Below the pieces are notes generated by a model that was not told the DNA's origin, searched no databases, and saw nothing but the letters and a program-made list of their open reading frames with translations. A program made the translations under genes and the position numbers. A stretch of 64,000 nucleotides of DNA from Spirochaetia bacterium (GTDB taxonomy: Bacteria; Spirochaetota; Spirochaetia; CAKZLE01): assembly GCA_963677595.1 (NCBI GenBank), contig OY782041.1, positions 384,001-448,000 on the forward strand, read 5' to 3'. This document shows, piece by piece, positions 27,638 to 49,917 of this stretch. The first letter of the stretch is position 1, and every line of letters begins with the position of its first letter.

Positions 27638-29005
27638 TTACATATACTTCTTCAGCTCTTCCACGAGCTCGTCGGTACCCGGTATGATCGACGGGTACTT
27701 CAGCTCCCCGTTGATGTAGATACTCGGGAGGCAGGAGATCTTCAGCTTCTGTATCCTCGCGATATCATCGGGGTTGTTGTACTGGTAGGAGGCGAAATCG
27801 ACCGCATCGCCGAGCACCTCCTTCGCAGACTTCGCCGCTGCCTCCATGTAGGTGCAGGCGGCACAGGCTACCGGGTCGAGCAGGAAGGCCTCCATCAGGG
27901 GCTTCTCAAGGTTCTCGTAATCAGGCAGCGCGACTTCGATATCATCGAAGGAGGTGCCTGAATGGTTCTCGACGAGCTTACGTACCACCTCGGTCTCCTG
28001 GACAGCCTGAGCTACCGCTACGGCGTTCTGGGGCGGTACATCATAGGGCATGTCGCAGCCCGGGGCAACGATCAGGTTCTTCGTAGTCGAGAGCCCTGCC
28101 GCAGAAAGCCCGTCGAGCATGTCGACGGTGTACTTCATGTTGTCCTGCTGGTTGCCGAAGAGCATGACCGTGGTCAGCGGGATGTTACCCCCGAGCACGA
28201 CGTTGTGGCGGTCGGTGATCTTCTTGGCCTCGATCATACTGACGTTCTCGTCCACGGCGATCGCATCGGGACCGCACTGGCACATCAGGTCTATGTTGTG
28301 GATGGCATTCCCGCATACGAAGAAGGAGCTGTAGGCTCCCTTCTCCCGTATATAGGTAAAGAGCTTCGTATAGGGTTCGAGGAAGAACTGGGTGAAGTGC
28401 TTCGGCGAGATCTGCGACATGAGCGGGTCCACCGGCACGATGATGTCCATCTCCTCCTCGATGTAGAAATCAGACATCCGGCAGGCGACTTCGGTAGTAT
28501 AGGCAAGCAGTTCATGGAGGGCATCCGGGTTCTTGATCATGTCCATGAAGATCTTCGTCCCCCGCAGGTGGGAAGCCAGCGTGAAGGGACCGCAGAAGAG
28601 CCCGTAGAGAGCCGTGTGGTCCCCCACTGCCTCCTTGAACCGCCTCATGACGTTCCAGACCATGGGGAGCCTGCCGTCATCCTTCTCGATCATCTTCTCA
28701 GGGATCTTCGATTCCTTCTTCAAGGGATGGGAAACGACTGAGGGGAGGTTCTTCTCCACCCACTTCAGCTCGCAGCCGAGGATCTCGGCCTCGAGCTGCA
28801 GGTCGAACATGACCGTCTGCCCGTCCGGGCTGTAGAGCCTGTTCACCTCGAGCAGCGATTCCAGCAGCTTGTCCTCATCCTGGAGCACCTCCAGGGCATT
28901 GTATCCCTTCGTCTTCCCCGCATGGATCCCTGCATAGGGAACCCATGCAGGCCGCGGGACCTCCTTGTGATTCAGGATGTCAATGATCAACTCTTTTCCA
29001 TTCAT
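27638..29005 (-). CDS. URO-D/MtaA-CmuA (MT2-like) methyltransferase-family protein with a C-terminal thioredoxin-like domain
   Basis: EAEILGC, GPFTLA, QISPKHF, FVCG, GNIP, VAPGCD; C-terminal CAAC…LPSIYINGE. Confidence 0.75.
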   Translation of the reverse strand: MNGKELIIDILNHKEVPRPAWVPYAGIHAGKTKGYNALEVLQDEDKLLESLLEVNRLYSPDGQTVMFDLQLEAEILGCELKWVEKNLPSVVSHPLKKESKIPEKMIEKDDGRLPMVWNVMRRFKEAVGDHTALYGLFCGPFTLASHLRGTKIFMDMIKNPDALHELLAYTTEVACRMSDFYIEEEMDIIVPVDPLMSQISPKHFTQFFLEPYTKLFTYIREKGAYSSFFVCGNAIHNIDLMCQCGPDAIAVDENVSMIEAKKITDRHNVVLGGNIPLTTVMLFGNQQDNMKYTVDMLDGLSAAGLSTTKNLIVAPGCDMPYDVPPQNAVAVAQAVQETEVVRKLVENHSGTSFDDIEVALPDYENLEKPLMEAFLLDPVACAACTYMEAAAKSAKEVLGDAVDFASYQYNNPDDIARIQKLKISCLPSIYINGELKYPSIIPGTDELVEELKKYM

Positions 29006-29033
29006 CCAACCGGTAGTTTCTCCTTATATGAAA

Positions 29034-31910
29034 TTATCTGACCTTGCCCAGTGCCCGGAGGATCTTCTCCGGGGTGATGGGCAGTTCTCTCATCCAGACG
29101 CCTACGGCATCATGGATGGCATTCGCGATTGCCGGAGCGGCGCCGTTCATGGCGATCTCCGATACGGACTTGCTCCCGAAGGGGCCGAAGGGGTCCGTCG
29201 TCTCGATGAGCTTCACCCTGAAGTCCCCGGGGATGTCCCCGATCATCGGGGCACCGTAGGACTCGAGGTCCGTGGTGAGGCAGGTCCCGTCAGCTGCCAG
29301 CTTCACCTCCTCATAGAGGGTATGGCCGATGGACTTCATGACCGCCCCGTAGATCTGGCCCTCTGCCAGTTCCGGGTTGATTGGTGTCCCGCAGTCCTGC
29401 AGTGCGTAGTACTTTTGGACGGTGACCTTCCCGGTCCTCCGGTCCACAGCCACCTGCACGAAGTGGGCACCGTAGGGGAAGGATGCATCGTCACAGGTGA
29501 ACGAGGCATGTCCCACGAGCTGGCCGATGCCGTCCCCACCATGGGTCGCCTGGGCGATCTCCCGGAAGGAGACTGAACCGCTGCGTCCGTTCACCTGCTC
29601 ATTGAACGCAAAAGTGAGATCGTCTGCGGGTTCGCCGAGCAGCGCTGCTGCAGATGCGAGGATCTTCTTCCGCAGCTCCTCCGCGGCGTTCCTGACGGCA
29701 CCGCCGGAGAAGAAGGTGCCGCTCGATGCGAAGGCACCGGTATCGAAGGGTGTCTGGTCGGTATCGCCGGAGATGATGGTGATGCGTGAGGGATCCATGT
29801 TGAGGATCTCGGCAGTCATCTTGACGCTGATGGTGTCGAGCCCGGTACCGAGGTCGGCCCCGCCCGAATGGATGATCACCGACCCGTCATTGAGCAGCTT
29901 CACCGAAGCGTTCGACAGGTCGAGCCCGGGGAGTCCTGATCCCTGCTGGATCAGCGCCATCCCCTTCCCGATCTTGATATCGATGTCACCACTGGTCTCT
30001 TTCTTTCCCCACTCGATCATCTTCGCGCCTTCTGATACCGCACGGGCAAGCCCGCAGCTCTTGATTACAGCAGGGGCTCCTTCCCGGCCCTCACCGAGGC
30101 ACCTGAGGATCTCGAGGGTGACACCCTCATCGACCCGGTTCTTCTCCACGACTTCGAGCATATCGATTCCGAGTGCATCGGAGAGCTCGGCGATGGCCAT
30201 ATGGAGTGCATAGTTTGCCTTAGGAGCACCATAGCCCTGGTAGGCTCCCGTCGGCATGATGTTCGAGTAGAAGACATTCACGTCAAATGCGATGTTGTCG
30301 CTCAGGTAGAGCGGCAGCGACTTGGAACAGCCGTTCATCGGGACGGTAAGGCAGTGGTTGCCGTACGGCCCGGTATTAGCCTTGAGGTCCATGTACATGG
30401 CGGTGAACGTCCCGTTCTTCTTCGCCCCGAGCTTCACCCGTATCTTCATCGGAAAACGGGAGACACTGTTGGTGTACTCCTCCTCCCTGGTGAAGTGGAA
30501 GAGGACCGGCTTCCCAGTCACCCAGGTGGCGAAGGCGCAGACATCCTCGAGGAGGATCTCCTGCTTGGAACCATAGCCGCCCCCGACTCGCTCCTTGATG
30601 ACACGGATCCGGTTCTCATCGATCCCGATCACCTTGGAGACGATCCTTCTCACGAAGAACGGGACCTGCGTCGAGGCATGGATGACGAGCCGGTCGGACT
30701 CCATCCTGGTATAGACGATATGGGTCTCGCAGGGAGTGCACTGGAACTGGCCGGTCTCATAGGTCCGCTCGATGACGGTATCAGCCTCGGCGAACCCCTT
30801 CTCGATGTCACCGATAGCCCCGGAGACGCTCGCAGCCTTGTTCACATGAGGGTCTGCCCCGATGGGGAACTGGATCTCGATCCTCCCGTCGCGCGGGTCG
30901 GCTCCCCGGTTCTTCTCCTCAAGGTCCTCAGGTGCCCCGACGGCATAGGAGACCTTGGCATTATGGACGATGGGTGCTCCCGGTGCTGAAGCCTCGTCGA
31001 TGGAGAACACAGGTTTGAGCACCTCGTATTCCACCATGATCGCATCAAGTGCGGCGATGGCATGCTCCTCGGTATCAGCCACGACGGCAGCTACCCGGTC
31101 GCCCACATGGTGGAGCTTCTGGGAGAACATGCGCCGGTCATAGGGGGAGGGTTCAGGGAACCCCTGTCCTGCAGGTGTGTAGTAGGTATCGGGGACGTTC
31201 TTGTAGGTGAGGACGAGCTCCACTCCCGGCTTGGTCTCAGCGACAGAGGTGTCGATCATCTTGATATAGGCATGGGCATGGGGACTGTGGAGCATCTTCA
31301 TGACCAGAGATCCCGGGAGCACCATATCCTCGACGAAGGCACGCTCCCCCCTGACGAGTTTCGCGCCGTCGACCTTCCGGTGTGCCTTGCCCACATACTT
31401 CAGGTCATCCCTGAACTCATCGCTCACGCGCATGACGGCATCAGAGTCCTTCATCCGCCTTTTTGCGAGTTCCACGGCATTGAAGAACTGCTCATAGCCG
31501 GTAGCACGGTTGTAGAGACCTGAGAGGGCATCCTTGATCTCTTCCCGGGTCGGGTCCGGCCTCCTCTCGAGCAGTTCGGTCAGCAGCAGCGCCGCTGCCG
31601 GTGCATTGTAGCCCGACTGGACGATCCCGGCATCGATCATGGCTGACTGCACGGGACTCAAGGGCCGGTCCATCGAGGCGAGGGACTCAGCCGTCCTGAT
31701 CTCGTGCCCGTCTATCTGGGCCGTGACCATCAGACCGGCATTCACCGGCCTGCCGTCAAAGAGGATCGTGTCAGACCCGACGAACCCACGGTGGTTGTCG
31801 CTGTCGCGCACGGAGAGCATCCCCAACCGCTTGAGGAACTCCTGCAGGTTCTCACCCGCGGATGCCTGTTCATTCCGGACTATGCCATTCAGGGTAAAAC
31901 TCACTTTCAT
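29034..31910 (-). CDS. xdhD: XdhD-like xanthine-dehydrogenase-family molybdenum subunit (N-terminal Fe-S-like domain without Cys)
   Basis: SVRDSDNHRGFVGSD and VQSGYN resemble E. coli XdhD; GQGFPEPSPYD, GGGYGSKQE, AYQGYG, GAFASSGT, GPFGSKSVSE; start at ATG 31910 with an ATGA overlap. Confidence 0.85.
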   Translation of the reverse strand: MKVSFTLNGIVRNEQASAGENLQEFLKRLGMLSVRDSDNHRGFVGSDTILFDGRPVNAGLMVTAQIDGHEIRTAESLASMDRPLSPVQSAMIDAGIVQSGYNAPAAALLLTELLERRPDPTREEIKDALSGLYNRATGYEQFFNAVELAKRRMKDSDAVMRVSDEFRDDLKYVGKAHRKVDGAKLVRGERAFVEDMVLPGSLVMKMLHSPHAHAYIKMIDTSVAETKPGVELVLTYKNVPDTYYTPAGQGFPEPSPYDRRMFSQKLHHVGDRVAAVVADTEEHAIAALDAIMVEYEVLKPVFSIDEASAPGAPIVHNAKVSYAVGAPEDLEEKNRGADPRDGRIEIQFPIGADPHVNKAASVSGAIGDIEKGFAEADTVIERTYETGQFQCTPCETHIVYTRMESDRLVIHASTQVPFFVRRIVSKVIGIDENRIRVIKERVGGGYGSKQEILLEDVCAFATWVTGKPVLFHFTREEEYTNSVSRFPMKIRVKLGAKKNGTFTAMYMDLKANTGPYGNHCLTVPMNGCSKSLPLYLSDNIAFDVNVFYSNIMPTGAYQGYGAPKANYALHMAIAELSDALGIDMLEVVEKNRVDEGVTLEILRCLGEGREGAPAVIKSCGLARAVSEGAKMIEWGKKETSGDIDIKIGKGMALIQQGSGLPGLDLSNASVKLLNDGSVIIHSGGADLGTGLDTISVKMTAEILNMDPSRITIISGDTDQTPFDTGAFASSGTFFSGGAVRNAAEELRKKILASAAALLGEPADDLTFAFNEQVNGRSGSVSFREIAQATHGGDGIGQLVGHASFTCDDASFPYGAHFVQVAVDRRTGKVTVQKYYALQDCGTPINPELAEGQIYGAVMKSIGHTLYEEVKLAADGTCLTTDLESYGAPMIGDIPGDFRVKLIETTDPFGPFGSKSVSEIAMNGAAPAIANAIHDAVGVWMRELPITPEKILRALGKVR

Positions 31911-32704
31911 GACAGCACCTCCCTGCATGCTTCGGCACATGCGATCACGGTCCGTGCCGCAATGTAATTCTTATAGGCTGCAGTCCCTGCTGCATCACTG
32001 ACAAGCAGGTTGAGTTCCCTGAATGCCAGATCGAACTCATGGACTGAATGGTCCTCTCTCTTGGTGAGGAGTTCCTCGATGAGCGGCAGGCGCATCGGTC
32101 TCTCACCGAACCCGGTCGCGACGAGTCTGGGATCCAGGCACTTCCTGTCAGCAGAGAACCACATGGAGAGGGCGAAGCTCATGATCACCTTCGAGGCACT
32201 GGACTGCCGAACACGCCTGACAGCGCTTGCCTTCGAGTTTATGGGGATGAGGACTGCCGTGATCAGGTCGCCCCTGCTGGAATCCACGTACTCCTCGACC
32301 GTGACGGTCGACCCGTCGGCAAGTTCGACTCTCGCCCCGAGCACGATCAGGCTCGGGACCAGCGCTGAATGGGTCCAGCATGCCGCTATATTCCCCCCGA
32401 CCGTGGCCATGTTCCGGACGCTGCGCGAGTAGATCCCCCGGGCAGCCTCCTTGATCACCGGCATGACCAGGGTCGAGTCGATGAGTTCCTGCAGCCTGAC
32501 GGCAGCACCGACCCTCAGGAGACCTCCCTCCAGGGATATCCCCCCCAGCCCCAGCTCACCGATCGATATCACGTTCGTATAGGGGGAAGCTGTATCCATG
32601 TGGTTGATGCTCGTCCCCCCGGCATAATAGCCGGCATGACTGTAGTGTTCGTACAGGGAGACCGCCTCCTCAACCATCTGAGGTTGTTTAAAGTTCCTAA
32701 TCAT
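31907..32704 (-). CDS. ygfM: YgfM-like FAD-binding subunit of a molybdopterin oxidoreductase
   Basis: YYAGGT, RNMATVGGNI; translationally coupled to xdhD as in the E. coli ygfM-xdhD pair. Confidence 0.75.
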   Translation of the reverse strand: MIRNFKQPQMVEEAVSLYEHYSHAGYYAGGTSINHMDTASPYTNVISIGELGLGGISLEGGLLRVGAAVRLQELIDSTLVMPVIKEAARGIYSRSVRNMATVGGNIAACWTHSALVPSLIVLGARVELADGSTVTVEEYVDSSRGDLITAVLIPINSKASAVRRVRQSSASKVIMSFALSMWFSADRKCLDPRLVATGFGERPMRLPLIEELLTKREDHSVHEFDLAFRELNLLVSDAAGTAAYKNYIAARTVIACAEACREVLS

Positions 32705-32775
32705 CCAACCCTCCAAATCCTTTTCATATCTGTCCCCTGATTGTAGCCTGAATCTCCGTGAACTGCCATGGGCCT

Positions 32776-33447
32776 TTACTGTGCATCGCTCAAATAATCG
32801 AGCAGCGAGACCTCCTCACCGGGCTCCTTCACGATCACCTCATGGTCCCACTCCTCGGTGAAGAGTTTCAGCATGAGGCGCTGGTCTCCCGTGATCTCAT
32901 GGTACTCAAGATCGTAGAGTTCACAGAATTTCCTGGCAAGCTCCTTGTAGGGAGTCGTATCATACTCCCCGGTATCCACGACGGCTGCCCGCTCGTAGTG
33001 TTCCAGGACCATCCTGGTATACTGCTGCGCCAGCTCCTCCCCGTACCGTTCGATGTACTTGTCATACTCGAGCAGGTGGTAGGTCCCGTCCTCGGACTCG
33101 ATGAACCGTTTCGTGAGGAAGAGCGTCCCGATCGCCTCGTTCCGGTGTTTCTCGAAACAGGTTTGGGAGCCGCAGAAGAGGGCTATGCAGTCGTGGATCC
33201 TCGGGAGTATGAGACGGTGGTGCGCAGAGGTGAGCCCCACCGTCGCATTCGAGCAGAGACCGTAGCCGAGCACGATCGTATCCCCCTTGCCGGGAATCCC
33301 GTCGATCACCTCCTGGAGGTGTGACCTGAGGAGGTCCGGCTTCTCATGCAGGGAGAAGGATTGTCTCATGATGATCATATCATCCGGGATGATCGACCTG
33401 GATTCTACCAGGATCGTATCACAGATGATGAGGTAGGTCTTGCTCAT
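32776..33447 (-). CDS. DUF1638-domain protein (associated with corrinoid methyltransferase systems)
   Basis: LHEKPDLL, VLGYGLCSNATVG, PRIHDCIALFCGS. Confidence 0.75.
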   Translation of the reverse strand: MSKTYLIICDTILVESRSIIPDDMIIMRQSFSLHEKPDLLRSHLQEVIDGIPGKGDTIVLGYGLCSNATVGLTSAHHRLILPRIHDCIALFCGSQTCFEKHRNEAIGTLFLTKRFIESEDGTYHLLEYDKYIERYGEELAQQYTRMVLEHYERAAVVDTGEYDTTPYKELARKFCELYDLEYHEITGDQRLMLKLFTEEWDHEVIVKEPGEEVSLLDYLSDAQ

Positions 33448-33517
33448 ACTCCATTACTCATTAGTATTTACTCGTTCGCTGCAGGGCTCTCACCCCCTGC
33501 AGCGTATTCCCGCGGGA

Positions 33518-34213
33518 CTAGATGTTCAATGCCCCGATGATGATCGGGTCTGCCGCACCGCCTGCGGCTCCCCTGGTCACCAGCTGCTTGCAGAGGTCCA
33601 CGCATTCACTTGCGGTGTTCGAATACCCGTCTGCCTTGATCATCGTCGTCCACTGCGGGGTGACAGGTCCTCCTCCGAGGATGACCTGGTACTTCTCCCG
33701 CATGCCCATGGCACCGAGGGTCTCGATGAGTTCCTTCTGGTACGGGAGGCTGGTGGTGATCAGGGTCGAGCAGGCGATGATGGTCGCGTTCTCACGCTGT
33801 GCAGCATCGATATACTCCCTGACGCTCACGTCGATCCCGAGGTCGATGACCTTGAAGCCGTTAGCCGAGAGGATCGCCTTGACCAGGTTCTTCCCGATAT
33901 CGTGGTGGTCACCAGCCATCACGCCGAGCACGACCGTGCCGGAATCTGCACCTGCACCACCGTCTTCCCGGATCTTCGCAAGGAGCACGTCCATCGCCAT
34001 GGTGGCAGCGTCACCGGCGAGCATCAACTCAGGGAGGAAGGCCTCCCCGTTCTCGAACTGCTCACCCATCAGGTCCATCGCAGCCTGGATGCCGCCCCGG
34101 ATCATCTCGAGGGGGTCTATGCCCTCCGCGATACTCTCCTGGGCGATCTCGAGTGCGTCATCCTCTTCACCTTCGATGACTGCATCATATAGTCTTTTGA
34201 TCAATTCGCTCAT
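33518..34213 (-). CDS. Cognate corrinoid (B12-binding) protein, MtmC/MttC-like
   Basis: N-terminal cap (FLPELMLAG), GDHHDIGKNLV (DxHxxG), VIDLG, ILGGGPVT, ADGY. Confidence 0.9.
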   Translation of the reverse strand: MSELIKRLYDAVIEGEEDDALEIAQESIAEGIDPLEMIRGGIQAAMDLMGEQFENGEAFLPELMLAGDAATMAMDVLLAKIREDGGAGADSGTVVLGVMAGDHHDIGKNLVKAILSANGFKVIDLGIDVSVREYIDAAQRENATIIACSTLITTSLPYQKELIETLGAMGMREKYQVILGGGPVTPQWTTMIKADGYSNTASECVDLCKQLVTRGAAGGAADPIIIGALNI

Positions 34214-34248
34214 ATCTGTATTTCTCCTAAACTCTTGTTACTTCGTGA

Positions 34249-35634
34249 TCAGATTGCATCAAGCGGCAGGCCGAACTCTTTCGCCCTGGTCCGTACTTCG
34301 TTGTATGCAGCCTCTGCTTCCGGCAGCGGGCGGAAGTTCTTGAGGTCCCACACTTCCTGTACCGGCTTCCCGATGTTCGGGGTCTTTATATTCGCCTCGA
34401 ATTCCGGGAGGAACTCATTAGCCAGGTCGTTCACGGCCGAGAGGTCCATACCGGATGCAGCATGGGCAACCTCAGCACACCATCGGCAGTCGAGGGGTGA
34501 GAGGTAGTCATTGAACTTCCCGCCTGCTGATCTCGGGCCTGTCGAGAAGGATGCACCTGAAGCGGCGATGATCGATACACCTACGAGCGTCTCGTAGAGC
34601 AGTTCCTTCGTTCCCGGACCCGACACCTGGTTCGCGATACCGTGGGTCAGGAGATGGGTGTTCCTGCTCAGAGCCTGGTGGGTCATGCTCAATGCCCAGA
34701 GGCCTTCCCGGTTCACGTTGGAGAGGTACCTGATGTCGTAGAGCTCCCCGCCGCCGACGGTCGAGAAGAGTACGGCATACTGGAGCAGTGACGCCGCGAT
34801 GCTCGAGATGACCGCACCCTCGGGAGGTCCCGGCATCCCGCCGATCATTCCCGGAGAACCGGCGAATACCATACCGCCCATGGCGAGGGTATGTACTACC
34901 TTGTGCATGGTCTGGTTGTTGATCTTCATCTCCGAAGGATAGAGGATCAGTGAGAGGTCGGTGGTATAGAAGTTGTCCCGTGTCCCATAGCAGAACTGGC
35001 CGAACTCGGTGACCGCGGAGATGTTCCCGATACCGGGCATACCTTCTCTTCCTGCTTTTCGCCGGAGCACCCGGTGCATACGTCCCTGCTCATAGCAGAG
35101 CAGGGTCTCTGACGGGTCACCGGGGAGGGCCTCCAAGCCGTTGATCGCAGTGAGCGACCCGCTCTCGAGCAAGTCGACCTGCGGCTGGCGTGCGATCCCT
35201 TCAGTGATCCAGGGCCATGCCTCTTCCGACATGGTGATCCCCAGCGATGACCCGAAGAGCATCGGGGTGGGGTCTGAGGGGGTACGTGACTTCATGATCC
35301 GCTTGTCGTGCCCGAACCCGAGCTCGACCTCTGACGGTGCGAGGTGGAGCGTGGTCACGAGCTCCTCTTCATCTATCTTGATGATCCTGTCGCGTGCCTC
35401 GTTGAGCATGCCGAGTTCCAGGGCAAGTTCGAAGCCTGCCTTGTAGAACTCATCGGCAAGCTCCATATCGGTGTTGACAGGGTTCTCCTTGTCAACGGTC
35501 TTCTGCAGGTTGTACTTCTTCAGCATCGACTTGACAGCCTTGGGGACTCGCTTCACATCCCAGTCATGGGCGCTGCAGTACTCACCTTCTCGAGACCTGC
35601 GCAGGATCTCGGTAAGATCAGGTTTCTGTTTCAT
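34249..35634 (-). CDS. Monomethylamine:corrinoid methyltransferase (MtmB)-family protein lacking pyrrolysine
   Basis: Collinear with Methanosarcina MtmB as I recall it: GEYCSAHDWD, TDMELADEFYKAGFEL, DRIIK, AGREGMPG-I-G, EMKIN, GGMPGPPE, SGPGTKELL, AEVAHAASG, GKPVQEVWD. Start at ATG 35634 with RBS AAGGAG; no in-frame TAG. Confidence 0.85.
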   Translation of the reverse strand: MKQKPDLTEILRRSREGEYCSAHDWDVKRVPKAVKSMLKKYNLQKTVDKENPVNTDMELADEFYKAGFELALELGMLNEARDRIIKIDEEELVTTLHLAPSEVELGFGHDKRIMKSRTPSDPTPMLFGSSLGITMSEEAWPWITEGIARQPQVDLLESGSLTAINGLEALPGDPSETLLCYEQGRMHRVLRRKAGREGMPGIGNISAVTEFGQFCYGTRDNFYTTDLSLILYPSEMKINNQTMHKVVHTLAMGGMVFAGSPGMIGGMPGPPEGAVISSIAASLLQYAVLFSTVGGGELYDIRYLSNVNREGLWALSMTHQALSRNTHLLTHGIANQVSGPGTKELLYETLVGVSIIAASGASFSTGPRSAGGKFNDYLSPLDCRWCAEVAHAASGMDLSAVNDLANEFLPEFEANIKTPNIGKPVQEVWDLKNFRPLPEAEAAYNEVRTRAKEFGLPLDAI

Positions 35635-35766
35635 ACTATTCTCCTTAACCAAATGTTTGACTTCTTCATCTCAGGAGGCAGCGGCCTCCCGTGTTTATCC
35701 TCGCATACGGCTTCCTGTCGTGCAGTATCGTATATGAGCTATCCATCTTCACCAAACAAGCTCCTG

Positions 35767-35795
35767 GTTTTAGACTTGTCCCGGACAAGGTTGCG
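35767..35795 (-). promoter_or_regulatory. Shared leader motif, copy 1 (upstream of the MtmB homologue)
   Basis: Plus strand GTTTTAGACTTG-TCCCGGA-CAAGGTTGCG; near-identical flanks at 42605-42635. Confidence 0.5.
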
Positions 35796-35847
35796 AATGC
35801 TTGCAGGTCGGCCTACGCCTTGACGTCGATCTCCCTATCCTACCTCC

Positions 35848-37704
35848 TTACTCATTCGCTGCACCCTCGAAGTACATATTCATAGCCAGGTCCCTGGAAA
35901 AACCCTTCCGACCTGACAGGTCGATGATCCTCATCTCATTCCTCATGGTCTCGCACCGGTCCCGGAACTCCCTGCTCAGCAGGGCAGAGACGGCGCTCCT
36001 GCCCGAAGTGTTCCCGACACAGACCACCCGGTCGGCAAGCTGCGGCGGGATCAGACCGATCTCCGCAGCACTCGATATCCTGATGCGGCTGCCGAAGCCC
36101 CCGGCGATGTAGAGACGGCTGACCTCATCAGCCGTGATCCCTGCTTCATCGAGGAGCGCCTCGATCCCGGTACGGATCGCTGACTTGGCAAGCTGGATCT
36201 CCCTGATGTCAGCCTGGGAGAGGTAGACGGTCTCCCCGGAGATGGTGAAGGCAGGTTTCCCCTTCACTTCAGCCATCCTCGAGGATAGCGCATGTTCACC
36301 TCTGGCAAAGCGTCCTTTCCGGTCGACGAGTCCTTCCCTGACGAGGAGTGCGGTCACATCGAGCACCCCGGATCCGCAGACGGCTGCGGGGACCTGGTCG
36401 TGGATGGTCGTGAACCGCAGCGCTTCCCCGTCATAGGATACACTGTCGATCGCCCCGGAGACCCCGCCTGACCCGCAGGAGAGGTTCGCCCCCTCGAAGG
36501 CAGGGCCGGCGGCAGTCGAACAGGCGAAGAGTCCTGCTGGACTTTTCAGGACGATCTCCCCATTGGTCCCGATATCGACGAAGAGGGAACACTCATCAGC
36601 TGTGTCCAGATGGACCGCAGCAGCCCCCCCCACGATATCGGCCCCGATGTACCCAGAGGCACTCGGGAGCAGGTAGACGGAACATCCTTCAAGTTCGCTG
36701 AAGAGATCCCGGATGATCTGAGAGGAGGTGAAGACCGGATTGAACGGTACCCTGCTGATGCTGCCTGCATCGATCCCGAGCAGGAGATGCAGCATGGTGG
36801 TGTTCCCTGCGACGGCACAGGAGGTGACCTGCCCGGTCATGATCCCGTTCCGCCCGCAGAGCTCCAGGATCATCTCCTGCAGCTGTTCGGTGATCACACG
36901 TGCGAGCTCTTCAGAGCCTTTTGCCTTTATCAGGGTATAGCCGATACGGGCGATGACATCGGCACCCGCGATGTGCTGTGCGTTCAGGGCCGATTCGGTA
37001 TCGATGATCTCCCCGGATGAGAGGTCCACCAGGTAACATGCTACGGTAGTCGTCCCGATATCGACTGCGATACCGTAGAATCGTTCCACGCCCTCAGCAG
37101 GGCAGACTGAGATGACAGTCCCGTCGCAGATATGTGCCCAGATCCCTGCCGGCTGCTTCATGTCCATGAGATGCCGCATCATGACCGGCAGCTGGTGGAG
37201 CACGACAGGAGAGACATCCGCCACGGCGATACCGCACTGGTCAGACAGGGCTTCTATGACCCGCAGGGCACCATCTCGGTTATCGTCGAAGGTCGGGACA
37301 CTCATCATGACACGGAAGCTCTCGACAAGCCGTCCCTGCAGGTGGTCCTCAGACTCTCCTGAGAACCCGGTCTCGACCTCCATGATGCGCTGTTCTGCAG
37401 CTTCGGCAATGGTGAGGTCACCCTCAGCAGTCGCATAGCAGGCAAGCCTGATACCCGCGATGATATCATCCTCACTGAGGTGCTGTTCCTCCTGGGGTCC
37501 CATCGGGGAGACTTCACCGGAGATGATGCGGATCCTGCACTTCCCGCAGGTCCCCGCTCCCCCGCAGGGACTCGTATACCCGAAGGCCTGTCCGCTGTCT
37601 GTTATCATGCTGCTGATCACGGTATGGAGATCGGTCCCGAACGCTGCCTTGGTAGTGAGTTTCTGGGGTATCATGGTTATACTGCAGCTGCGTGCCTCAG
37701 ACAT
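35848..37704 (-). CDS. Reductive activator of corrinoid enzymes (RACE; ASKHA/DUF4445 with an N-terminal [2Fe-2S] domain)
   Basis: CGGAGTCGKC…RLAC, VDIGTTT, GADVIARI, AGNTTM, DIGTNGE, TAAGPAFEG, CGSG, QLAKSA, AGGFG. Confidence 0.9.
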   Translation of the reverse strand: MSEARSCSITMIPQKLTTKAAFGTDLHTVISSMITDSGQAFGYTSPCGGAGTCGKCRIRIISGEVSPMGPQEEQHLSEDDIIAGIRLACYATAEGDLTIAEAAEQRIMEVETGFSGESEDHLQGRLVESFRVMMSVPTFDDNRDGALRVIEALSDQCGIAVADVSPVVLHQLPVMMRHLMDMKQPAGIWAHICDGTVISVCPAEGVERFYGIAVDIGTTTVACYLVDLSSGEIIDTESALNAQHIAGADVIARIGYTLIKAKGSEELARVITEQLQEMILELCGRNGIMTGQVTSCAVAGNTTMLHLLLGIDAGSISRVPFNPVFTSSQIIRDLFSELEGCSVYLLPSASGYIGADIVGGAAAVHLDTADECSLFVDIGTNGEIVLKSPAGLFACSTAAGPAFEGANLSCGSGGVSGAIDSVSYDGEALRFTTIHDQVPAAVCGSGVLDVTALLVREGLVDRKGRFARGEHALSSRMAEVKGKPAFTISGETVYLSQADIREIQLAKSAIRTGIEALLDEAGITADEVSRLYIAGGFGSRIRISSAAEIGLIPPQLADRVVCVGNTSGRSAVSALLSREFRDRCETMRNEMRIIDLSGRKGFSRDLAMNMYFEGAANE

Positions 37705-37710
37705 AGATAC

Positions 37711-38652
37711 TTACCGTTCCTCCCTGAAGTAGGGGACGCCGAGGCTCTGCGGGGCATTCCCCCGGGCCTTTCGCCTCATCGAGTCGAGCACCAGGACGAT
37801 GATCGTCATGACGTAGGGCAGCGAGTCAAGGACGTAGATCGAGACCGGCAGGTCGAACTGCTGCAGGCGGAATCCCACGATATTGAGCCCGCCGAAGAAG
37901 AGCGCACCGAGGAACGCCCGGTAGGGGTTCCATTTGGAGAAGATGACCAGCGCCACAGCGATCCATCCCCGCCCGGAGATGATCGAGTCCTGCCATGCAG
38001 GTACATAGATCAGGGAGAGGTACCCTCCGGCGAGGCCGCAGAGCACCCCGCCGATGGCAAGGTGGATGTAGCGGTACTTGATGACCGAGATCCCGAGGGA
38101 GTCTGCAGCCCTCGGGTTCTCTCCGACCATCGACCCGTTCAGGCCGTATCGTGTCTTATAGAGATAGATCCCGACGACCACGATCAGCACATACGTGATA
38201 TAGATCATGTAGTCCTGGTTGAAGAGGATCTCACCGATGACCGGGATATCACCCAACAGGGGGATCTTCACCTTCACGAAGGTGGAGATGATCCTCTCTG
38301 GGGCCCTCGTCCCGATGATCGGCGTCCCGATGAAGCCGGCGAAGCCGGTACCGAACATCGTCAGGGTGAGCCCGGTGACGATCTGGTTGGCCCGCAGGGT
38401 GATGGTGACGAAACCGAAGATCATGGCCCCGAGCACACCGGCGAGGGCCGCTGCGATGAATGACAGGAGTGGGCTCGCTGTCTGGAGGGATACCATGAAC
38501 CCGATGATCGCACCCATGTACATCATACCCTCGACACCGAGGTTGAGCGAACCGCTCTTCTCGGTGACGAGCTCCCCCATCGTGGCGAGGAGGAGCGGGG
38601 TCCCGGCAACCACGGCGGCCCCGAGAAAACAAACGAACCAGTTCAGGTCCAT
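37711..38652 (-). CDS. Nucleoside/purine ABC transporter permease (NupC/YufQ-like)
   Basis: EKSGSLNLGVEGMM, GENPRAADSLG, GRGWIAVA, LPY. Confidence 0.9.
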   Translation of the reverse strand: MDLNWFVCFLGAAVVAGTPLLLATMGELVTEKSGSLNLGVEGMMYMGAIIGFMVSLQTASPLLSFIAAALAGVLGAMIFGFVTITLRANQIVTGLTLTMFGTGFAGFIGTPIIGTRAPERIISTFVKVKIPLLGDIPVIGEILFNQDYMIYITYVLIVVVGIYLYKTRYGLNGSMVGENPRAADSLGISVIKYRYIHLAIGGVLCGLAGGYLSLIYVPAWQDSIISGRGWIAVALVIFSKWNPYRAFLGALFFGGLNIVGFRLQQFDLPVSIYVLDSLPYVMTIIVLVLDSMRRKARGNAPQSLGVPYFREER

Positions 38653-38653
38653 A

Positions 38654-39730
38654 TCATGCGCCTCCCTTTGCTGAAGTCACTCGCTTCGATTCCCGGATCA
38701 CCCGGTACTTGAGGAAGAACTCGCTTCCCAGGACGAAGAAGAGGATGAGTCCCTGCAGCAGCGATGCTGCTGCCTGGGGTATCTGGAACACGGTCTGGAT
38801 ATAGGATCCTCCCTCCACCATGACGGCAAAGAGGAAGGAGACGACCAGGATGGCTATGGCATTGAGCTGGCCGAGCCAGGCGATGATGATCGCGGTATAC
38901 CCTACCCCGTTGCTTACATCTATACTCAGGGTCATGTTCACCCCGGAGACCTGGATCATACCGACGATCCCGCAGATCCCCCCGCTGATGAAGAGGGTCC
39001 CGAGGATGATCTTCGAGGTAGGCATGCCCGCATAGCGGGCTGTCGCCTCGTTCTCCCCGATGACCCGGATCTCATAGCCTCGTTTGGTGTAGTTGATGAA
39101 GAGGTAGATGAGGACGACCAGCACGGGTACGAGGATGATCCCGATATGGACGCCGAACAGCTTGGGCAGCTGGGCGTTCTTCACGAGGTTCGGGATCTTC
39201 GGGTAGCCGAATGCGTGTTCATCCTTCCAAGCCACGTACTGCAGGTAGGTGATCCACTTCAATGCCACGTAGTTGAGCATGAGGGTGAGGATCGTCTCAT
39301 TGGTCTTGAACTTCACCTTGAGGAATGCCGGGATCAGTGCCCACAGCCCGCCGCCGACGAGTCCCGCAGCCACCATGAGCGGCAGCAGGATGATCTTCGG
39401 GAGCGACTGGAAGTTGAGGCCGACATAGGTGGCGGCAGCTGCCCCCATCATGATCTGCCCTTCCCCGCCGATATTCCAGAACTTCATCCTGAAGGATAAG
39501 CCTATCCCGAGGGCAGTCAGGGCATAGGGGATGGTCCTCGTGAGGGTCTCCCGGACACGGTAGCCGGATCCCAGGCCCCCGTCTATCATGGAGGCGTAGA
39601 CCTCGAACGGGTTATGCCCGAGGAAGAGCAGGAGGAATCCCGAGAGGGTGAATGCAAGAAGGATCGCATAGACGCGCACGCGGATCTTCTTGGCCATGGA
39701 ACAGGTTTCAAGCGGTACGATCCTAGCCAT
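38654..39730 (-). CDS. Nucleoside/purine ABC transporter permease (NupB/YufP-like)
   Basis: WNIGGEGQ, NETILTLMLNY, GENEATARYAG. Confidence 0.9.
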   Translation of the reverse strand: MARIVPLETCSMAKKIRVRVYAILLAFTLSGFLLLFLGHNPFEVYASMIDGGLGSGYRVRETLTRTIPYALTALGIGLSFRMKFWNIGGEGQIMMGAAAATYVGLNFQSLPKIILLPLMVAAGLVGGGLWALIPAFLKVKFKTNETILTLMLNYVALKWITYLQYVAWKDEHAFGYPKIPNLVKNAQLPKLFGVHIGIILVPVLVVLIYLFINYTKRGYEIRVIGENEATARYAGMPTSKIILGTLFISGGICGIVGMIQVSGVNMTLSIDVSNGVGYTAIIIAWLGQLNAIAILVVSFLFAVMVEGGSYIQTVFQIPQAAASLLQGLILFFVLGSEFFLKYRVIRESKRVTSAKGGA

Positions 39731-41261
39731 TGCTGCACTCCTCCCCGATCGTCGTCATCAGGACTCCCAGTTCATTCTTCGTGATCTCGTCAGGGTTCGC
39801 GATCCCTGAGACCTGTCCGCAATAGAGGACCATGACCCGGTCGCAGACTTCCAGCAGCAGGTCCAGATCCTCTGCCAGGAGCAGGACCCCGGCCCCTCTG
39901 GCCTTCTGCTCATTGAGCAGTTCGATGACCTTGTGGGTGACCCCGAGATCGAGTCCCCGTACGGGGTAGGAGGCGATGAGGACCTTCGGGTCACTCATGA
40001 TCTCACGCCCGATGAGTATCTTCTGCAGGTTGCCGCCCGAGAGAACGCTGATCGGCCGGTCGATCCCGGGATGCATGACATCGAGGGATTCGACGAGCCG
40101 TTCGGTCATCTCGTAGGCACGCTTCGAGTCGATGAAGATCCCCTTGCCTGCATGGTAGTCACGGAGCATGACGTTGTCGACGAGGCTCATGCTGCCGACC
40201 AGTCCCATCCCGAGCCGGTCCTCAGGCACGAAGTTGATCGGGACGACACCCTGCCGGAAGATCTCACTCGCGCTCTTGCCTGCGATCTCCTTCCCGTTCG
40301 CCTTCACCGACCCGGAATCTATCTTCTGCAGGCCTACCAGGGCCTGGCAGAGCTGTTTCTGGCCGCTCCCCGATACCCCGGCCACGCCGAGGATCTCGCC
40401 GGCATGGAGGTCGAAGGAGACGCCCCTGAGCTGCCGCATCGCTGCGGCATCATTTACGTGGAGGTCACTCACCTCCAGGACGACGTCTCCAGCGGGGACC
40501 CTCAGCCTCGGGAACTCCATCTTCATGGACTTCCCGACCATGATATCAGCGAGCTCCTTCTGGGTCGTCTCTGCCGTACTGAGGGTCTTCACGACCCTTC
40601 CCTTGCGCATGATGGTGACACGGTCGCTGATCTCCATGACCTCATACAGCTTATGGGTGATGATGATCGCTGTCTTACCAGCATCACGCATAGTCCGGAT
40701 GATGGAGAAGAGCCGTTCGGTCTCCTGCGGGGTCAGTACGGTGGTTGGTTCATCAAGGATGAGGATCTCAGCCCCCCGGTAGAGGACCTTGAGGATCTCC
40801 AGTGTCTGCTTCTGCCCGACGCCCATGTCCGAGACATAAGCTTCCAGGTCCAGAGAGAGACCTGTCTCCCGGCAGATCTCAGCGATCCGTTTACGGCAGC
40901 CCTTCCTGTCAAGGAAGAGTGAGCCGTTCGGCCCCGCTATGATATTCTGCCAGGCCTTCATGGCATCCACCAGCTTGAAATGCTGGTAGATCATGCCGAT
41001 GCCTGCATCGATGGAGTCTTGGGGAGAGCCGAAAGTCTCCTCGCTGCCGTCGATCATGATGGTCCCGGCATCGGGGGTGTAGATCCCTGAGAGGATGTTC
41101 ATCAAGGTACTCTTGCCCGCCCCGTTCTCGCCGAGGATGGCATGCACCTCTCCCCGCCTGATGTCCAGGTCCACATCGTCATTGGCCTTGAGGGGACCGA
41201 ATTCCTTGGTGATCCCCCGCATGCTGATCACGACTTCATTACTCACCATATACTCCTGCAT
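39723..41261 (-). CDS. Nucleoside/purine ABC transporter ATP-binding protein (NupA/YufO-like)
   Basis: [42 protein letters not shown]. Confidence 0.9.
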   Translation of the reverse strand: MQEYMVSNEVVISMRGITKEFGPLKANDDVDLDIRRGEVHAILGENGAGKSTLMNILSGIYTPDAGTIMIDGSEETFGSPQDSIDAGIGMIYQHFKLVDAMKAWQNIIAGPNGSLFLDRKGCRKRIAEICRETGLSLDLEAYVSDMGVGQKQTLEILKVLYRGAEILILDEPTTVLTPQETERLFSIIRTMRDAGKTAIIITHKLYEVMEISDRVTIMRKGRVVKTLSTAETTQKELADIMVGKSMKMEFPRLRVPAGDVVLEVSDLHVNDAAAMRQLRGVSFDLHAGEILGVAGVSGSGQKQLCQALVGLQKIDSGSVKANGKEIAGKSASEIFRQGVVPINFVPEDRLGMGLVGSMSLVDNVMLRDYHAGKGIFIDSKRAYEMTERLVESLDVMHPGIDRPISVLSGGNLQKILIGREIMSDPKVLIASYPVRGLDLGVTHKVIELLNEQKARGAGVLLLAEDLDLLLEVCDRVMVLYCGQVSGIANPDEITKNELGVLMTTIGEECSNG

Positions 41262-41274
41262 CTTATACGAAGAA

Positions 41275-41314
41275 GATGCTGAGGAATGAGCGGGGACCGC
41301 TCATTCCTTTGCAT
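41275..41314 (-). promoter_or_regulatory. Intercistronic stem-loop after the BMP gene
   Basis: AGGAATGAGCGG-GGA-CCGCTCATTCCT core with extended flanking pairing. Confidence 0.55.
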
Positions 41315-41334
41315 CATATAAACTGACTTGCTGG

Positions 41335-42411
41335 TTACTCGATAGAACCGATGACGCCGTCAACGAGGAAGCTCATGCCGAGCTTGTCGCCGTCGCTCAT
41401 GACTTCGCCGTCTGCCAGTACGAGGTTGCCCTGGTTGTCATACAGCGGGCCTGCGAAGACCTCGAAGGAACCGTCGATGATCTTTGCCTGTACCTCATCC
41501 ACGATCGCCTGTGCCCCTGCAGGAGCGTTCTTGCCGAGCGGTGCGAGCCGAACGACATCGTCTTCCATGCCGCCCCAGTAGTTGCTTGCGTCCCAGGTGC
41601 CGTTCATGACTTCCTGAGTCACTGCCACATAATAGGGATCCCAGTTCCAGTAGGGAGAGGTGAGGCATGCTTCAGGTGCAGCTGCGTTCATGTCCGCATG
41701 GTAGCCGACACCCCATACACCCCTGGCCTCTGCTGCCTGGAGGTTCGCAGGAGCAGTCTGGTGCTGGGCGATGACGTCACAGCCCTTGTCGATGAGTGCG
41801 AAGGTTGCTTCCTTCTCGTTCGGCGGGTTGTCCCAGTCAAGGGTCCAGGTCACTTCGACCGTCACGTCTGGGTTCACGCTCTTTGCACCAAGGGTGAAGG
41901 CGTTGATTCCCCGGACGACTTCCGGGATACTGAAGGCTGCGATATACCCGAGCTTGTTGGTCTCGGTCTTGAGTCCTGCCACGATACCGGAGAGGTAACG
42001 AGCCTGGTAGATCTTTCCGAGGTAGTTGACCGCATTCTCTGTCTGCATGTATCCGCCGCAGTGGAAGAAAGCGACTTCCGGATGCTCTGCAGCGACTTCA
42101 AGCATATAGTCCATGTAGCCGAAGCTGGTAGCGAAGATCATCTTGGCACCCTGGGCGATCATGTCCCTCATGACTTTCGCACTCTCCTGGGTGTTGGGGA
42201 CGTTCTCTTTGTAGAGGGTCTCCACGCCGAGCTCCTTCTCAATAGCCAGCCTTCCTGCATTGTGCTGCTGGGTCCAGCCCATGTCACCGATAGGTCCGGT
42301 GAAGACGAAACCGACCTTGAACACCTCTTCTTTCTTCTCTTCCTGAGCCCCGCCCGCGAACAGCGGAGACAGCACCAGCAGGATCGCTAAGAGACATAGC
42401 ACTTTCTTCAT
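41335..42411 (-). CDS. BMP-family ABC substrate-binding protein (purine/nucleoside type)
   Basis: GPIGDMGWTQQH, FATSFGY, IPEVVRGINAF, DVIAQHQ, WGGM, FAGPLYD; signal peptide …FAGGAQE. Confidence 0.9.
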   Translation of the reverse strand: MKKVLCLLAILLVLSPLFAGGAQEEKKEEVFKVGFVFTGPIGDMGWTQQHNAGRLAIEKELGVETLYKENVPNTQESAKVMRDMIAQGAKMIFATSFGYMDYMLEVAAEHPEVAFFHCGGYMQTENAVNYLGKIYQARYLSGIVAGLKTETNKLGYIAAFSIPEVVRGINAFTLGAKSVNPDVTVEVTWTLDWDNPPNEKEATFALIDKGCDVIAQHQTAPANLQAAEARGVWGVGYHADMNAAAPEACLTSPYWNWDPYYVAVTQEVMNGTWDASNYWGGMEDDVVRLAPLGKNAPAGAQAIVDEVQAKIIDGSFEVFAGPLYDNQGNLVLADGEVMSDGDKLGMSFLVDGVIGSIE

Positions 42412-42604
42412 ACCCTAAACTCCTTACGTGTAGCCAAAATATTCTCATCCGCCATACAGGCGGCCTTGAGTCTATCCAAAAGACATCCACATACACCGCT
42501 GAATCCACGGCTATGGACATACCTGCTACCACACAGGTCTGATACTGAGACGGATTCTGTTCGTTAACATTGATCCACACTAGATGTGCGACAAGGAACT
42601 GGCT

Positions 42605-42635
42605 GTTTTAGACTTGCAAAGCCTGCAAGGTTTCG
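42605..42635 (-). promoter_or_regulatory. Shared leader motif, copy 2 (upstream of the BMP gene)
   Basis: Plus strand GTTTTAGACTTG-CAAAGCCTG-CAAGGTTTCG. Confidence 0.5.
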
Positions 42636-42997
42636 TGGTTACTGTGTATACATAAAGTGCTCATGTATCAGTTGACCATAATAGATTCTGAACCATATCG
42701 TACCATCTGCTCAATAATTATGCAATCTTTTTCATTATATTACATTTTGTTGTCTGATTTTACGATTCAGTACCTACAGGATGTCATGGTGTTCCCACCA
42801 ATCATGTCTTATCTTAAATAAATGCAATTTTCATGCCATCAATTATATAGAGCATATTATCAACAAAACGGGGAGATTTTGCAACAATTTTTAGATGATA
42901 ACGAACAATATTCTCATGATGTTGCAGAACAAAACCTATCCTGCAACATCACGCATCACGTAAATGTAGGATTCCGTCACAGAATCCTACATGGATG

Positions 42998-46887: not shown

Positions 46888-48563
46888 CGATTCATCCCCG
46901 CAGGTGCGGGGAACGGGACTCAATCTCGCCCCTTGCTGACTCAATATACGGTTCATCCCCGCAGGTGCGGGGAACAGTTTCACATATTCAAGATTTTTAT
47001 ATGCATGATCGGTTCATCCCCGCAGGTGCGGGGAACAGATCAGGTATGTCCAGGAGCAGACGAACTACCGCGGTTCATCCCCGCAGGTGCGGGGAACAGG
47101 TTCTGGACGAGCAGGTCGGTGAGCGCAAGAGCGGTTCATCCCCGCAGGTGCGGGGAACAGACCATCTTCATAAGTTCCGTCAATCTCAAGAACGGTTCAT
47201 CCCCGCAGGTGCGGGGAACAGGTGCAGCGCTACAGTTAGCTATTTGACTACAACGGTTCATCCCCGCAGGTGCGGGGAACAGTCCGCATCACGCTTGATG
47301 TCGATCCCCAAAATCGGTTCATCCCCGCAGGTGCGGGGAACATTCGTAAATGTGTCCAGGATCGGTCTCAAACTACGGTTCATCCCCGCAGGTGCGGGGA
47401 ACAGTCCGCATCACGCTTGATGTCGATCCCCAAAATCGGTTCATCCCCGCAGGTGCGGGGAACATTCGTAAATGTGTCCAGGATCGGTCTCAAACTACGG
47501 TTCATCCCCGCAGGTGCGGGGAACAGTACCCGGCTTTCTCCATACCTTCCATACAGTCCGGTTCATCCCCGCAGGTGCGGGGAACAGACAGCTACTATGC
47601 AGATATTGCCTTCGCATCTCGGTTCATCCCCGCAGGTGCGGGGAACAGGTCTTTGTATGATCCGAGTTCACGAATGGCAGCGGTTCATCCCCGCAGGTGC
47701 GGGGAACAGAAGGTGTACTCCCGTTTCGGCTGCAGTATTATCGGTTCATCCCCGCAGGTGCGGGGAACAGAGCTCTTTGCCATACTGCAGCGTATGGGCG
47801 ATCGGTTCATCCCCGCAGGTGCGGGGAACAGGATCTCACACTGATCTGTGAGAGAGTTGTACCCGGTTCATCCCCGCAGGTGCGGGGAACAGGCGGCGGC
47901 AGGAAAGATGGAAAACTTTGCAGACGGTTCATCCCCGCAGGTGCGGGGAACAGGCGGTCACTGAGGAAAAGGACAAGTATACATCCGGTTCATCCCCGCA
48001 GGTGCGGGGAACAGTGCACCCATTCAGGGGCCTGCGTGAACAGGTTCGGTTCATCCCCGCAGGTGCGGGGAACAGGAAAACTCATCCTCAATACCGCAGT
48101 ACTTGGACGGTTCATCCCCGCAGGTGCGGGGAACAGAATCTCTCAGTTCACGAACTCATGCAAGGTTGCGGTTCATCCCCGCAGGTGCGGGGAACAGGTA
48201 TTCTACGGAGTACCTAAGGTTCAGGAGAGCGGTTCATCCCCGCAGGTGCGGGGAACAGTTGATTGGCTCGTCGATGACTGCGGTAAGTTCCGGTTCATCC
48301 CCGCAGGTGCGGGGAACAGGTAAAGATCATCTTTGCTCTTGTATGGGTAATCGGTTCATCCCCGCAGGTGCGGGGAACAGTACGAGCGTACGTACTCGTA
48401 CTACAATCTCGGCGGTTCATCCCCGCAGGTGCGGGGAACAGCTTTGTCCCCGCGAGTGCGTTCTGTTCATATTCGGTTCATCCCCGCAGGTGCGGGGAAC
48501 AGACCTCAGCCGAAGAATCTGATCATCGTTCTGGCGGTTCATCCCCGCAGGTGCGGGGAACAG
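46888..48563 (-). CRISPR. Type I-E CRISPR array: 28 repeats (29 nt) and 27 spacers (32 nt)
   Basis: Plus-strand repeat CGGTTCATCCCCGCAGGTGCGGGGAACAG with an exact 61-nt period. The degenerate terminal repeat is at 46888 and the AT-rich leader is on the cas2 side, so transcription is on the minus strand. Confidence 0.98.
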
Positions 48564-48703: not shown

Positions 48704-49907
<1,204 letters not shown>

Positions 49908-49917
49908 GTTTGCTTTC

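Follow-up and report, generated by a model that had tools for sequence, protein, structure and literature searches.

We analyzed a 64,000-nt stretch of DNA (the window) from the genome of a Spirochaetia bacterium (the source genome, G000; 95% complete), which carries at positions 27638–42411 an operon that probably encodes the anaerobic, corrinoid-dependent N-demethylation of a methylated oxopurine base. The block consists of 11 open reading frames, all on the minus strand and tightly packed, with intergenic gaps of −34 to 73 bases and a single exception of 195 bases between the genes for the RACE activator and the MtmB homologue. Gene labels were checked with Pfam and NCBIfam profiles and, together with the open reading frames, agree with the initial annotation of 11 co-oriented genes in the order listed below. 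A DxHxxG corrinoid protein, a reductive activator and two methyltransferases are found in one operon, i.e., the architecture of methyltransferase 1 (MT1), corrinoid protein, RACE activator and methyltransferase 2 (MT2). Systems of this architecture are known; what would be new is the substrate class. The two copies of a structured RNA motif listed with the genes were absent from that earlier, gene-only description.

42591..42647, minus strand: structured RNA motif copy a, candidate riboswitch, about 180 nt before the binding-protein gene; no Rfam match
41335..42411, minus strand: BMP-family substrate-binding protein, predicted purine-base type (PF02608; nearest structures 3s99 and AtzT 6pi5)
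39723..41261, minus strand: ABC ATPase with two nucleotide-binding domains (ABC_tran)
38654..39730, minus strand: ABC permease 1 (PF02653, BPD_transp_2)
37711..38652, minus strand: ABC permease 2 (PF02653, BPD_transp_2)
35848..37704, minus strand: RACE/RamA-type corrinoid reductive activator (Fer2, RACo middle and C-terminal domains)
35755..35805, minus strand: structured RNA motif copy b, about 120 nt before mtmB
34249..35652, minus strand: pyrrolysine-free MtmB-family methyltransferase, predicted MT1 (PF05369; Ile at the position of Pyl202; model versus 1l2q, TM 0.92)
33518..34213, minus strand: corrinoid protein, B12-binding, with the DxHxxG motif as DHHDIG at residue 102
32776..33447, minus strand: DUF1638 protein, likely corrinoid-reactivation helper (PF07796; from the literature on RamA-like activators)
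31907..32716, minus strand: YgfM-like FAD subunit (FAD_binding_5; nearest TIGR03312)
29034..31940, minus strand: XdhD paralogue, Fe-S/molybdopterin (MoCoBD/Fer2_2; TIGR03313 above cut-off)
27638..29005, minus strand: UroD/MtaA-like methyltransferase with a CxxC thioredoxin-like domain, predicted MT2 (URO-D and weak Thioredoxin_3)

Better start codons with ribosome-binding sites are present at ATG 35634 (mtmB, 461 amino acids), 32704 (ygfM) and 31910 (xdhD).

Conservation of the operon and gene neighbourhood of the MtmB clade

The close relatives of the MtmB homologue (79–91% identity) belong to Spirochaetia genomes, and MtmB at no less than 78% identity was detected in 7 genomes among 151 relatives. 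Gene order is kept across 12 close spirochaete loci, which amount to nine distinct ones (one MtmB sequence is common to three of them and a different one to two) and were counted as a single event, i.e., one inherited block. The importer was found in 11 of the 12 loci and so was the UroD gene, with one locus cut in each case, and ygfM–xdhD was present in nine (six of the nine distinct loci). The core of the block is formed by the importer, RACE, mtmB, the corrinoid protein, DUF1638 and UroD–thioredoxin; ygfM–xdhD is accessory, since it is missing from three of the nine distinct loci. Cluster genes are split in single assemblies, by sequencing error or decay, at L004:177-1254 and in the xdhD and UroD genes of L040 and L059.

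To extend the comparison across the wider clade, an alignment of 85 homologues was traced to 79 metagenome loci, 74 of them outside the close set. Three purine-type markers, namely the BMP-type importer, the xanthine dehydrogenase (XDH) large subunit and the TRZ/ATZ deaminase, were counted by tblastn in the 28 clade loci of at least 8 kb, the 46 shorter loci being dropped. As controls served 35 distant-MtmB loci (39 fetched, four short ones dropped), 20 MttB loci and 308 tiles of 14 kb from the purine-rich source genome itself. The importer was detected in 14 clade loci, the XDH large subunit in 12 and the deaminase in 13. At least one marker was present in 24 of the 28 clade loci, compared with 5 of 35 distant-MtmB loci, none of 20 MttB loci and 20 of 308 tiles; at least two kinds of marker occurred together in 11 clade loci, compared with no distant-MtmB locus, no MttB locus and five tiles. 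When kin were collapsed, a marker remained in 21 of 23 groups at 90% identity and in 16 of 16 at 80%. Across all 74 clade loci, short ones included, 43 carried a marker, which lay within 2.5 kb of mtmB in 38 and, in 35 of those, on the mtmB strand.

The pair of mtmB and corrinoid gene is constant in the wider clade. Its purine-type partners appear to have been recruited repeatedly, since these neighbours are not orthologous to the window genes (binding proteins 23–35% and molybdoenzyme large subunits 26–37% identical to those of the window) and the deaminases fall in several separate lineages. The nearest named relatives of the wider clade are Anaerolineales, Anaerolineae and Acidimicrobiia proteins, with a Spirochaetia protein for two loci. 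The association on which the initial annotation had made its reading depend is conserved in other genomes and is repeated in other phyla with non-orthologous importers, molybdoenzymes and deaminases. Several clade loci hold two to four MtmB paralogues, each with its own corrinoid genes, as several methyl positions would need.

Further features were seen around clade members. Two distant molybdoenzymes (35% identical to XdhD; L042:5035 and L042:16969), with a GEGRE motif that includes the Glu606 equivalent, flank a clade mtmB. At L084:76-8435, two genes resembling nonribosomal peptide synthetases and a phosphopantetheinyl transferase lie upstream of a clade mtmB without a corrinoid gene. The contig of the source genome (G000:C1) is itself rich in purine-type genes, with ten XDH-family large subunits, seven BMP loci and nine TRZ-family matches.

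The pyrrolysine-free MtmB homologue

The MtmB homologue matches PF05369 with 219 bits against a cut-off of 25 (E 1e-64), and its predicted model (pLDDT 92.6) aligns with MtmB (1l2q) at a TM score of 0.92 and 25% identity. Pyl202 of MtmB corresponds to Ile208 in the window protein, the gene has no in-frame stop, and Ile occupies this position in 79 of 85 aligned relatives. PylS was not found above cut-off in the source genome, where the best match reached 22.8 bits against 178. The protein is Pyl-free, as first annotated, and a Pyl-dependent monomethylamine methyltransferase is ruled out. Ile211 and Leu235 align, as counted by hand, with Glu205 and Glu229 of MtmB, which we take to belong to the methylamine site. 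The clade conserves E163, E303, H337, N341 and R374, which lie where strands are predicted to end. In MtmB, Pyl202 sits on a barrel strand (PMC9842639). The predicted pocket positions are mostly aliphatic or polar and do not form an aromatic cage as in MtgB, which binds its quaternary amine through aromatic residues (PMC13080624).

With the MtmB/MtmC/RamA/MtbA system of Methanosarcina (PDB 1l2q, 1nth), the window system shares the TIM-barrel fold and the four-part architecture; it differs in being bacterial, in carrying Ile208 rather than Pyl, in the replacement of the acidic site residues and in its purine context. The first Pyl-free MtmB with a demonstrated function is MtqB, described with MtqC from Methanococcoides methylutens Q3c, whose substrates are choline and tetramethylammonium; the remaining Pyl-free branches are called unknown in function in the same paper (PMC13044021). 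MtqB is likewise a Pyl-free homologue beside a cognate corrinoid protein and in the MT1 role; compared by description rather than by sequence, it differs in its substrates, in the use of coenzyme M as methyl acceptor and in that no purine genes are described in the available text.

Given that this is the sole demonstrated function of any Pyl-free MtmB, the window protein could be an MtqB-like choline/tetramethylammonium demethylase with the purine genes as hitch-hikers. We consider this very unlikely. A quaternary-amine transporter, searched for with E. coli proteins only, was found in none of the 28 wider clade loci, none of the 12 close loci and none of the 35 distant-MtmB loci versus three of the 20 MttB loci; purine-type genes appear to have joined mtmB repeatedly, at short distance; and the predicted pocket is not of the MtgB type.

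A second Pyl-free MtmB of the source genome (G000:C1:4025618-4027006), 27% identical to the first, is encoded immediately upstream of an ECF-type transporter; the 25 kb inspected contain no corrinoid gene. Together with other spirochaete MtmBs it forms a small clade, whose loci are likewise without a corrinoid match. Outside purine contexts, individual genomes of the Spirochaetota families f19, f32 and f50 (L125–L144) encode as many as four Pyl-free MtmBs along with numerous MttB candidates; in G089, one of the MtmB matches contains a TAG.

Binding site of the importer

The nearest solved structures to the binding protein are Brucella 3s99 and AtzT 6pi5 (both E 1e-78), with the nucleoside binder TmpC at E 3e-5. 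Of the purine or nucleoside import first proposed, the nucleobase is upheld by this match and the nucleoside is not. AtzT binds guanine (KD 110 nM) and adenine (2.5 uM) via Tyr45, Trp194, Ser97, Phe98, Glu165, Asn218 and Asn220 (PMC6834077). Mapped by hand on the window–AtzT alignment, W193, S96, F97 and E164 are kept, W46 stands for Tyr45, H217 for Asn218 and T219 for Asn220, i.e., four of the seven residues are identical; a further difference is Gly for Asn169. The aromatic sandwich, Ser, Phe and Glu of the guanine site are common to AtzT, 3s99 and the window protein, and His at the Asn218 position also occurs in 3s99, which was modelled with adenine. Position 219 is Thr or Ser in 10 of 10 close relatives and Asp in the other close BMP protein of the genome. 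These residues point to a purine-base site with one hydrogen-bond partner removed, and the partner lost at position 219 may make room for a methylated ring nitrogen.

XdhD–YgfM and the purine genes of the source genome

The window XdhD scores 1317 bits against TIGR03313 (cut-off 1102) and is 56% identical to E. coli XdhD, with the equivalent of Glu606 (E617) and the Glu of the SEI motif (E928) kept. YgfM is nearest to TIGR03312, below its cut-off (143.5 vs 241.5). In the reductive urate (2,8-dioxopurine) pathway, E. coli XdhD–YgfM acts as urate reductase and yields isoxanthine from urate, an outcome that has been proposed to depend on Glu606 (10.1101/2025.05.19.654654, PMC12990295). In the source genome ygfK, ssnA, ygfM, xdhD, ygeW and ygeY are found together, with hyuA homologues elsewhere; the xdhD of this ygfK-ssnA-ygfM-xdhD-ygeW region is a second copy, 65% identical to that of the window. 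All five relatives searched have a second or sole xdhD outside the cluster, in four of them beside ygeW, and three of the five have both copies. In a 13-row tree the five cluster XdhD copies form a group distinct from the copies beside ygeW, with support of 94/96 that falls slightly short of the starred threshold. Nine fixed differences separate these five from six canonical copies, among which D450E and Y726F adjoin active-site motifs.

The window enzyme differs from the canonical urate reductase in being a second copy outside the ygfK-ssnA-ygeW locus, in its fixed changes near the active site and in being joined to a corrinoid system; the simplest reading is that it would be a duplicate adapted to a substituted urate. 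The coupling to an XdhD-type enzyme that was first suggested holds in so far as this is a true XdhD and a paralogue of the urate reductase, with the restriction that it is only an accessory part of the block.

An N-methyl heterocycle other than a purine, such as an N-methylpyridinium (trigonelline, N1-methylnicotinamide), creatinine, N-methylhydantoin or methylpterin, could be demethylated by the same route. A charged ring nitrogen would be a better methyl donor, which fits the preference of MtqB for quaternary nitrogen. The BMP, XDH and TRZ families are not purine-exclusive, with pyridines, pterins and triazines among the compounds they act on; triazines are bound by AtzT, and for one deaminase the best structural match is AtzA. 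Sub-branches of the clade at L062, L099, L100 and L104 stand beside UbiD/UbiX and amidohydrolase-2 genes, which suggests a heteroaromatic carboxylate substrate there, and L042 carries a creatininase and a deaminase alongside its clade mtmB. We still regard such a donor as unlikely for the window, which has an AtzT/3s99-like binding site and, as its molybdoenzyme, a true XdhD with Glu606; in the wider clade, TRZ deaminases are as common a neighbour as the importer, several of them with an HHH..QTL motif like that of 8-oxoguanine deaminase.

Fate of the methyl group

The UroD protein aligns with MtaA, and the His of the zinc site is replaced (Phe229-x-Cys231...Cys317); against TIGR01463 it scores 137.5 bits, below the cut-off of 235.4. 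With Phe in place of His in the His-x-Cys...Cys site, assignment as an MtaA/MtbA-type MT2 or a type 1 Mlp was rejected. A type 1 mlp cluster, which needs at least two Mlp paralogues, was likewise rejected: there is one UroD gene here and one per close locus, two matches occurring only where the gene is split. The protein carries a conserved CAAC thioredoxin-like domain, whose Thioredoxin_3 match is weak (20.1 bits, below the cut-off of 24.8), and such fusions form a widespread, unnamed family. The UroD of window type was found beside only two of the 28 wider clade loci. DUF1638 co-occurs and shares fitness with RamA-like activators (PMC5764234, PMC12478193).

AcsB, MttB and a stand-alone pterin-binding (folate) methyltransferase were not found in the source genome, which has FTHFS, MTHFR and SelD. 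The methyl group likely leaves on a thiol and not via acetogenesis, because there is no AcsB and MetH is the only pterin-binding protein. The MT2 label of the initial annotation stands as regards a URO-D family protein in the operon; with the zinc His, AcsB and a stand-alone folate methyltransferase all missing, this MT2 has no known acceptor.

Mlps of the UroD family act as S/Se methyltransferases (PMC10418091), and the donor could be an S-methyl purine, such as 2-methylthioadenine or methylthioadenosine, with the UroD protein handling the methyl-sulfur as proposed for mlp clusters. Type 1 mlp clusters resemble the window system in that a non-methanogen lacking a folate methyltransferase carries a UroD-family methyltransferase together with a corrinoid protein and RACE; the TRZ neighbours score against MTA/SAH deaminase models, and SelD is encoded in the genome. 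The mlp clusters, however, need two or three Mlps with His-Cys-Cys, whereas the window has one UroD protein without the His ligand, fused to thioredoxin and accompanied by MtmB. The low frequency of this UroD beside clade loci, the constancy of the mtmB–corrinoid pair and the distance of the binding protein from nucleoside binders (TmpC E 3e-5 vs 1e-78) also make an S-methyl donor distinctly improbable. The available text of PMC10418091 makes no mention of MtmB, purine or xanthine.

Methyl flow could also run in reverse, the UroD protein loading the corrinoid and MtmB methylating an imported purine or amine, which would fit a genome with neither AcsB nor a stand-alone pterin-binding methyltransferase to accept the methyl group. 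We attach hardly any weight to this direction: among the 28 wider clade loci there are four with a methyl-H4folate methyltransferase and one with MTHFR genes, the usual catabolic methyl sink, and an importer together with ring-degrading enzymes fits catabolism.

Two more UroD–thioredoxin genes of the source genome (G000:C1:298509-305642 and 1914015-1917411) are each followed by CobW-like GTPase open reading frames, labelled by eye. The former locus also encodes RACE, an AraC-like regulator and a corrinoid protein, and no MT1.

A structured RNA motif in two leaders

All eight aligned leaders share a conserved island that lies some 180 nt ahead of the binding-protein gene, and a second copy of the motif lies between RACE and mtmB; the source genome has exactly two copies. 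An extra conserved hairpin occurs just upstream of copy a, to about 42680. The motif comprises an outer stem of six pairs, an asymmetric internal loop (a G-x-A-A-C-like and a U-x-U-A-A-A-A-C strand), an inner stem starting CUU/AAG and a free loop. A model built from 18 copies and run on 151 genomes recovered a pair of copies in every one of the 7 that carry the cluster, largely the training set of the model, plus one weak intragenic match. Outside the training set it detected a further copy in L039 and five weak matches (E 0.011–0.14 over 88 sources). The five are L046:1609-1685, L048:9182-9261, L051:1868-1944, L053:261-338 and L054:560-637, each 42–57 nt before the corrinoid gene of a corrinoid–mtmB pair and all in one sister lineage, 88–93% identical to an Anaerolineales protein. 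With these five added, 93% of cells pair and 6 of 12 pairs show two-sided changes; the covariation score was reached by none of 500 shuffles, a control that ignores kinship, and slid pairings gave at most 49%.

No Rfam 15 family matched, purine riboswitches included, even at E up to 10 on 201-base stretches; the two-stem motif is new in being absent from Rfam. It shows the leader position, sense strand, covarying stems and conserved loops of a riboswitch, and no clear terminator or expression platform was found after either copy. Taken together, we predict a riboswitch at roughly even chances; the motif may instead be a protein-binding or processing site. The xanthine (NMT1) riboswitch (PMC8266621) is similarly small, with two stems around a conserved junction, and tied to purine breakdown; with no Rfam match and other phyla involved, the likeness is one of topology only. 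No report of a riboswitch at such genes was found in the literature at the level of titles and listings.

Outside the operon, at about 46890–48560 and 48704–50580, the window holds an array of clustered regularly interspaced short palindromic repeats (about 27–28 repeats) beside cas2-, cas1- and cas6e-like open reading frames; the system, which looks like type I-E by eye, borders a low-GC stretch.

Proposed pathway and its significance

From the gene content, conservation, site residues, and RNA conservation and covariation observed, we infer the following reactions, substrates and RNA role. The importer would take up an N-methylated oxopurine base (methylurate, methylxanthine or methylguanine), and the Pyl-free MtmB would transfer the N-methyl group, without oxygen, to the cobalt carried by the corrinoid protein. 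By analogy, RACE and DUF1638 would keep the corrinoid reduced, and the UroD–thioredoxin protein may unload the methyl group onto a thiol-type acceptor, which is the weakest step. Where present, XdhD–YgfM would remove the C6 oxygen of a urate-type ring, and its product would feed into the reductive urate pathway, for which the genome has genes elsewhere. In the two leaders, the RNA motif might switch the genes in response to a pathway metabolite. Relative to the methylpurine demethylation proposed initially, the purine link is retained and the substrate class is refined to the base.

Several points weigh against this pathway. The N-methyl group of a neutral purine is a poor leaving group and needs activation. 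The sole characterised Pyl-free MtmB acts on quaternary amines, the predicted MT2 is without a known acceptor, XdhD is missing from a third of the distinct close loci, and E. coli YgeX had no match at E 1e-15 in the source genome. In the neighbourhood counts, all controls were Spirochaetota, the wider clade being nearest to Anaerolineae/Acidimicrobiia with their own purine-gene background; the BMP and permease queries included window proteins, the quaternary-amine queries came from E. coli only, and kin are not independent. The breadth of the marker families and the UbiD/UbiX and creatininase loci described above belong here as well. The RNA motif was not found in 69 other clade loci, many of them short or without a leader, nor in 150 further genomes, and the folding energy of single copies was no better than that of shuffles (one of eight with z below −2).

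To our knowledge, purine N-demethylases all need oxygen. NdmA and NdmB, the O2-dependent Rieske methylxanthine N-demethylases that release formaldehyde, carry out the same net reaction as proposed for the operon and are unrelated to it. No paper on a corrinoid route for methylpurines was found by title or abstract opening in the open-access literature, subscription journals being outside the scope of the search.

Methylated purines arise from RNA turnover and from caffeine-type alkaloids and their urates. More tentatively, the whole MtmB branch might consist of B12-dependent purine N-demethylases, an anaerobic entry for methylxanthines, methylurates and methylated RNA bases that feeds reductive urate breakdown and is controlled here by a new methylpurine-sensing riboswitch class. 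The operon narrows the question to a single enzyme pair, a single binding protein and a few ligands, which makes it directly testable, and the ligand of the candidate riboswitch would itself reveal the substrate. If true, the proposed demethylation would give a function to a large Pyl-free MtmB branch in sediment Spirochaetota and Chloroflexota and would widen the scope of corrinoid methyl transfer beyond amines to include aromatic ring nitrogens.

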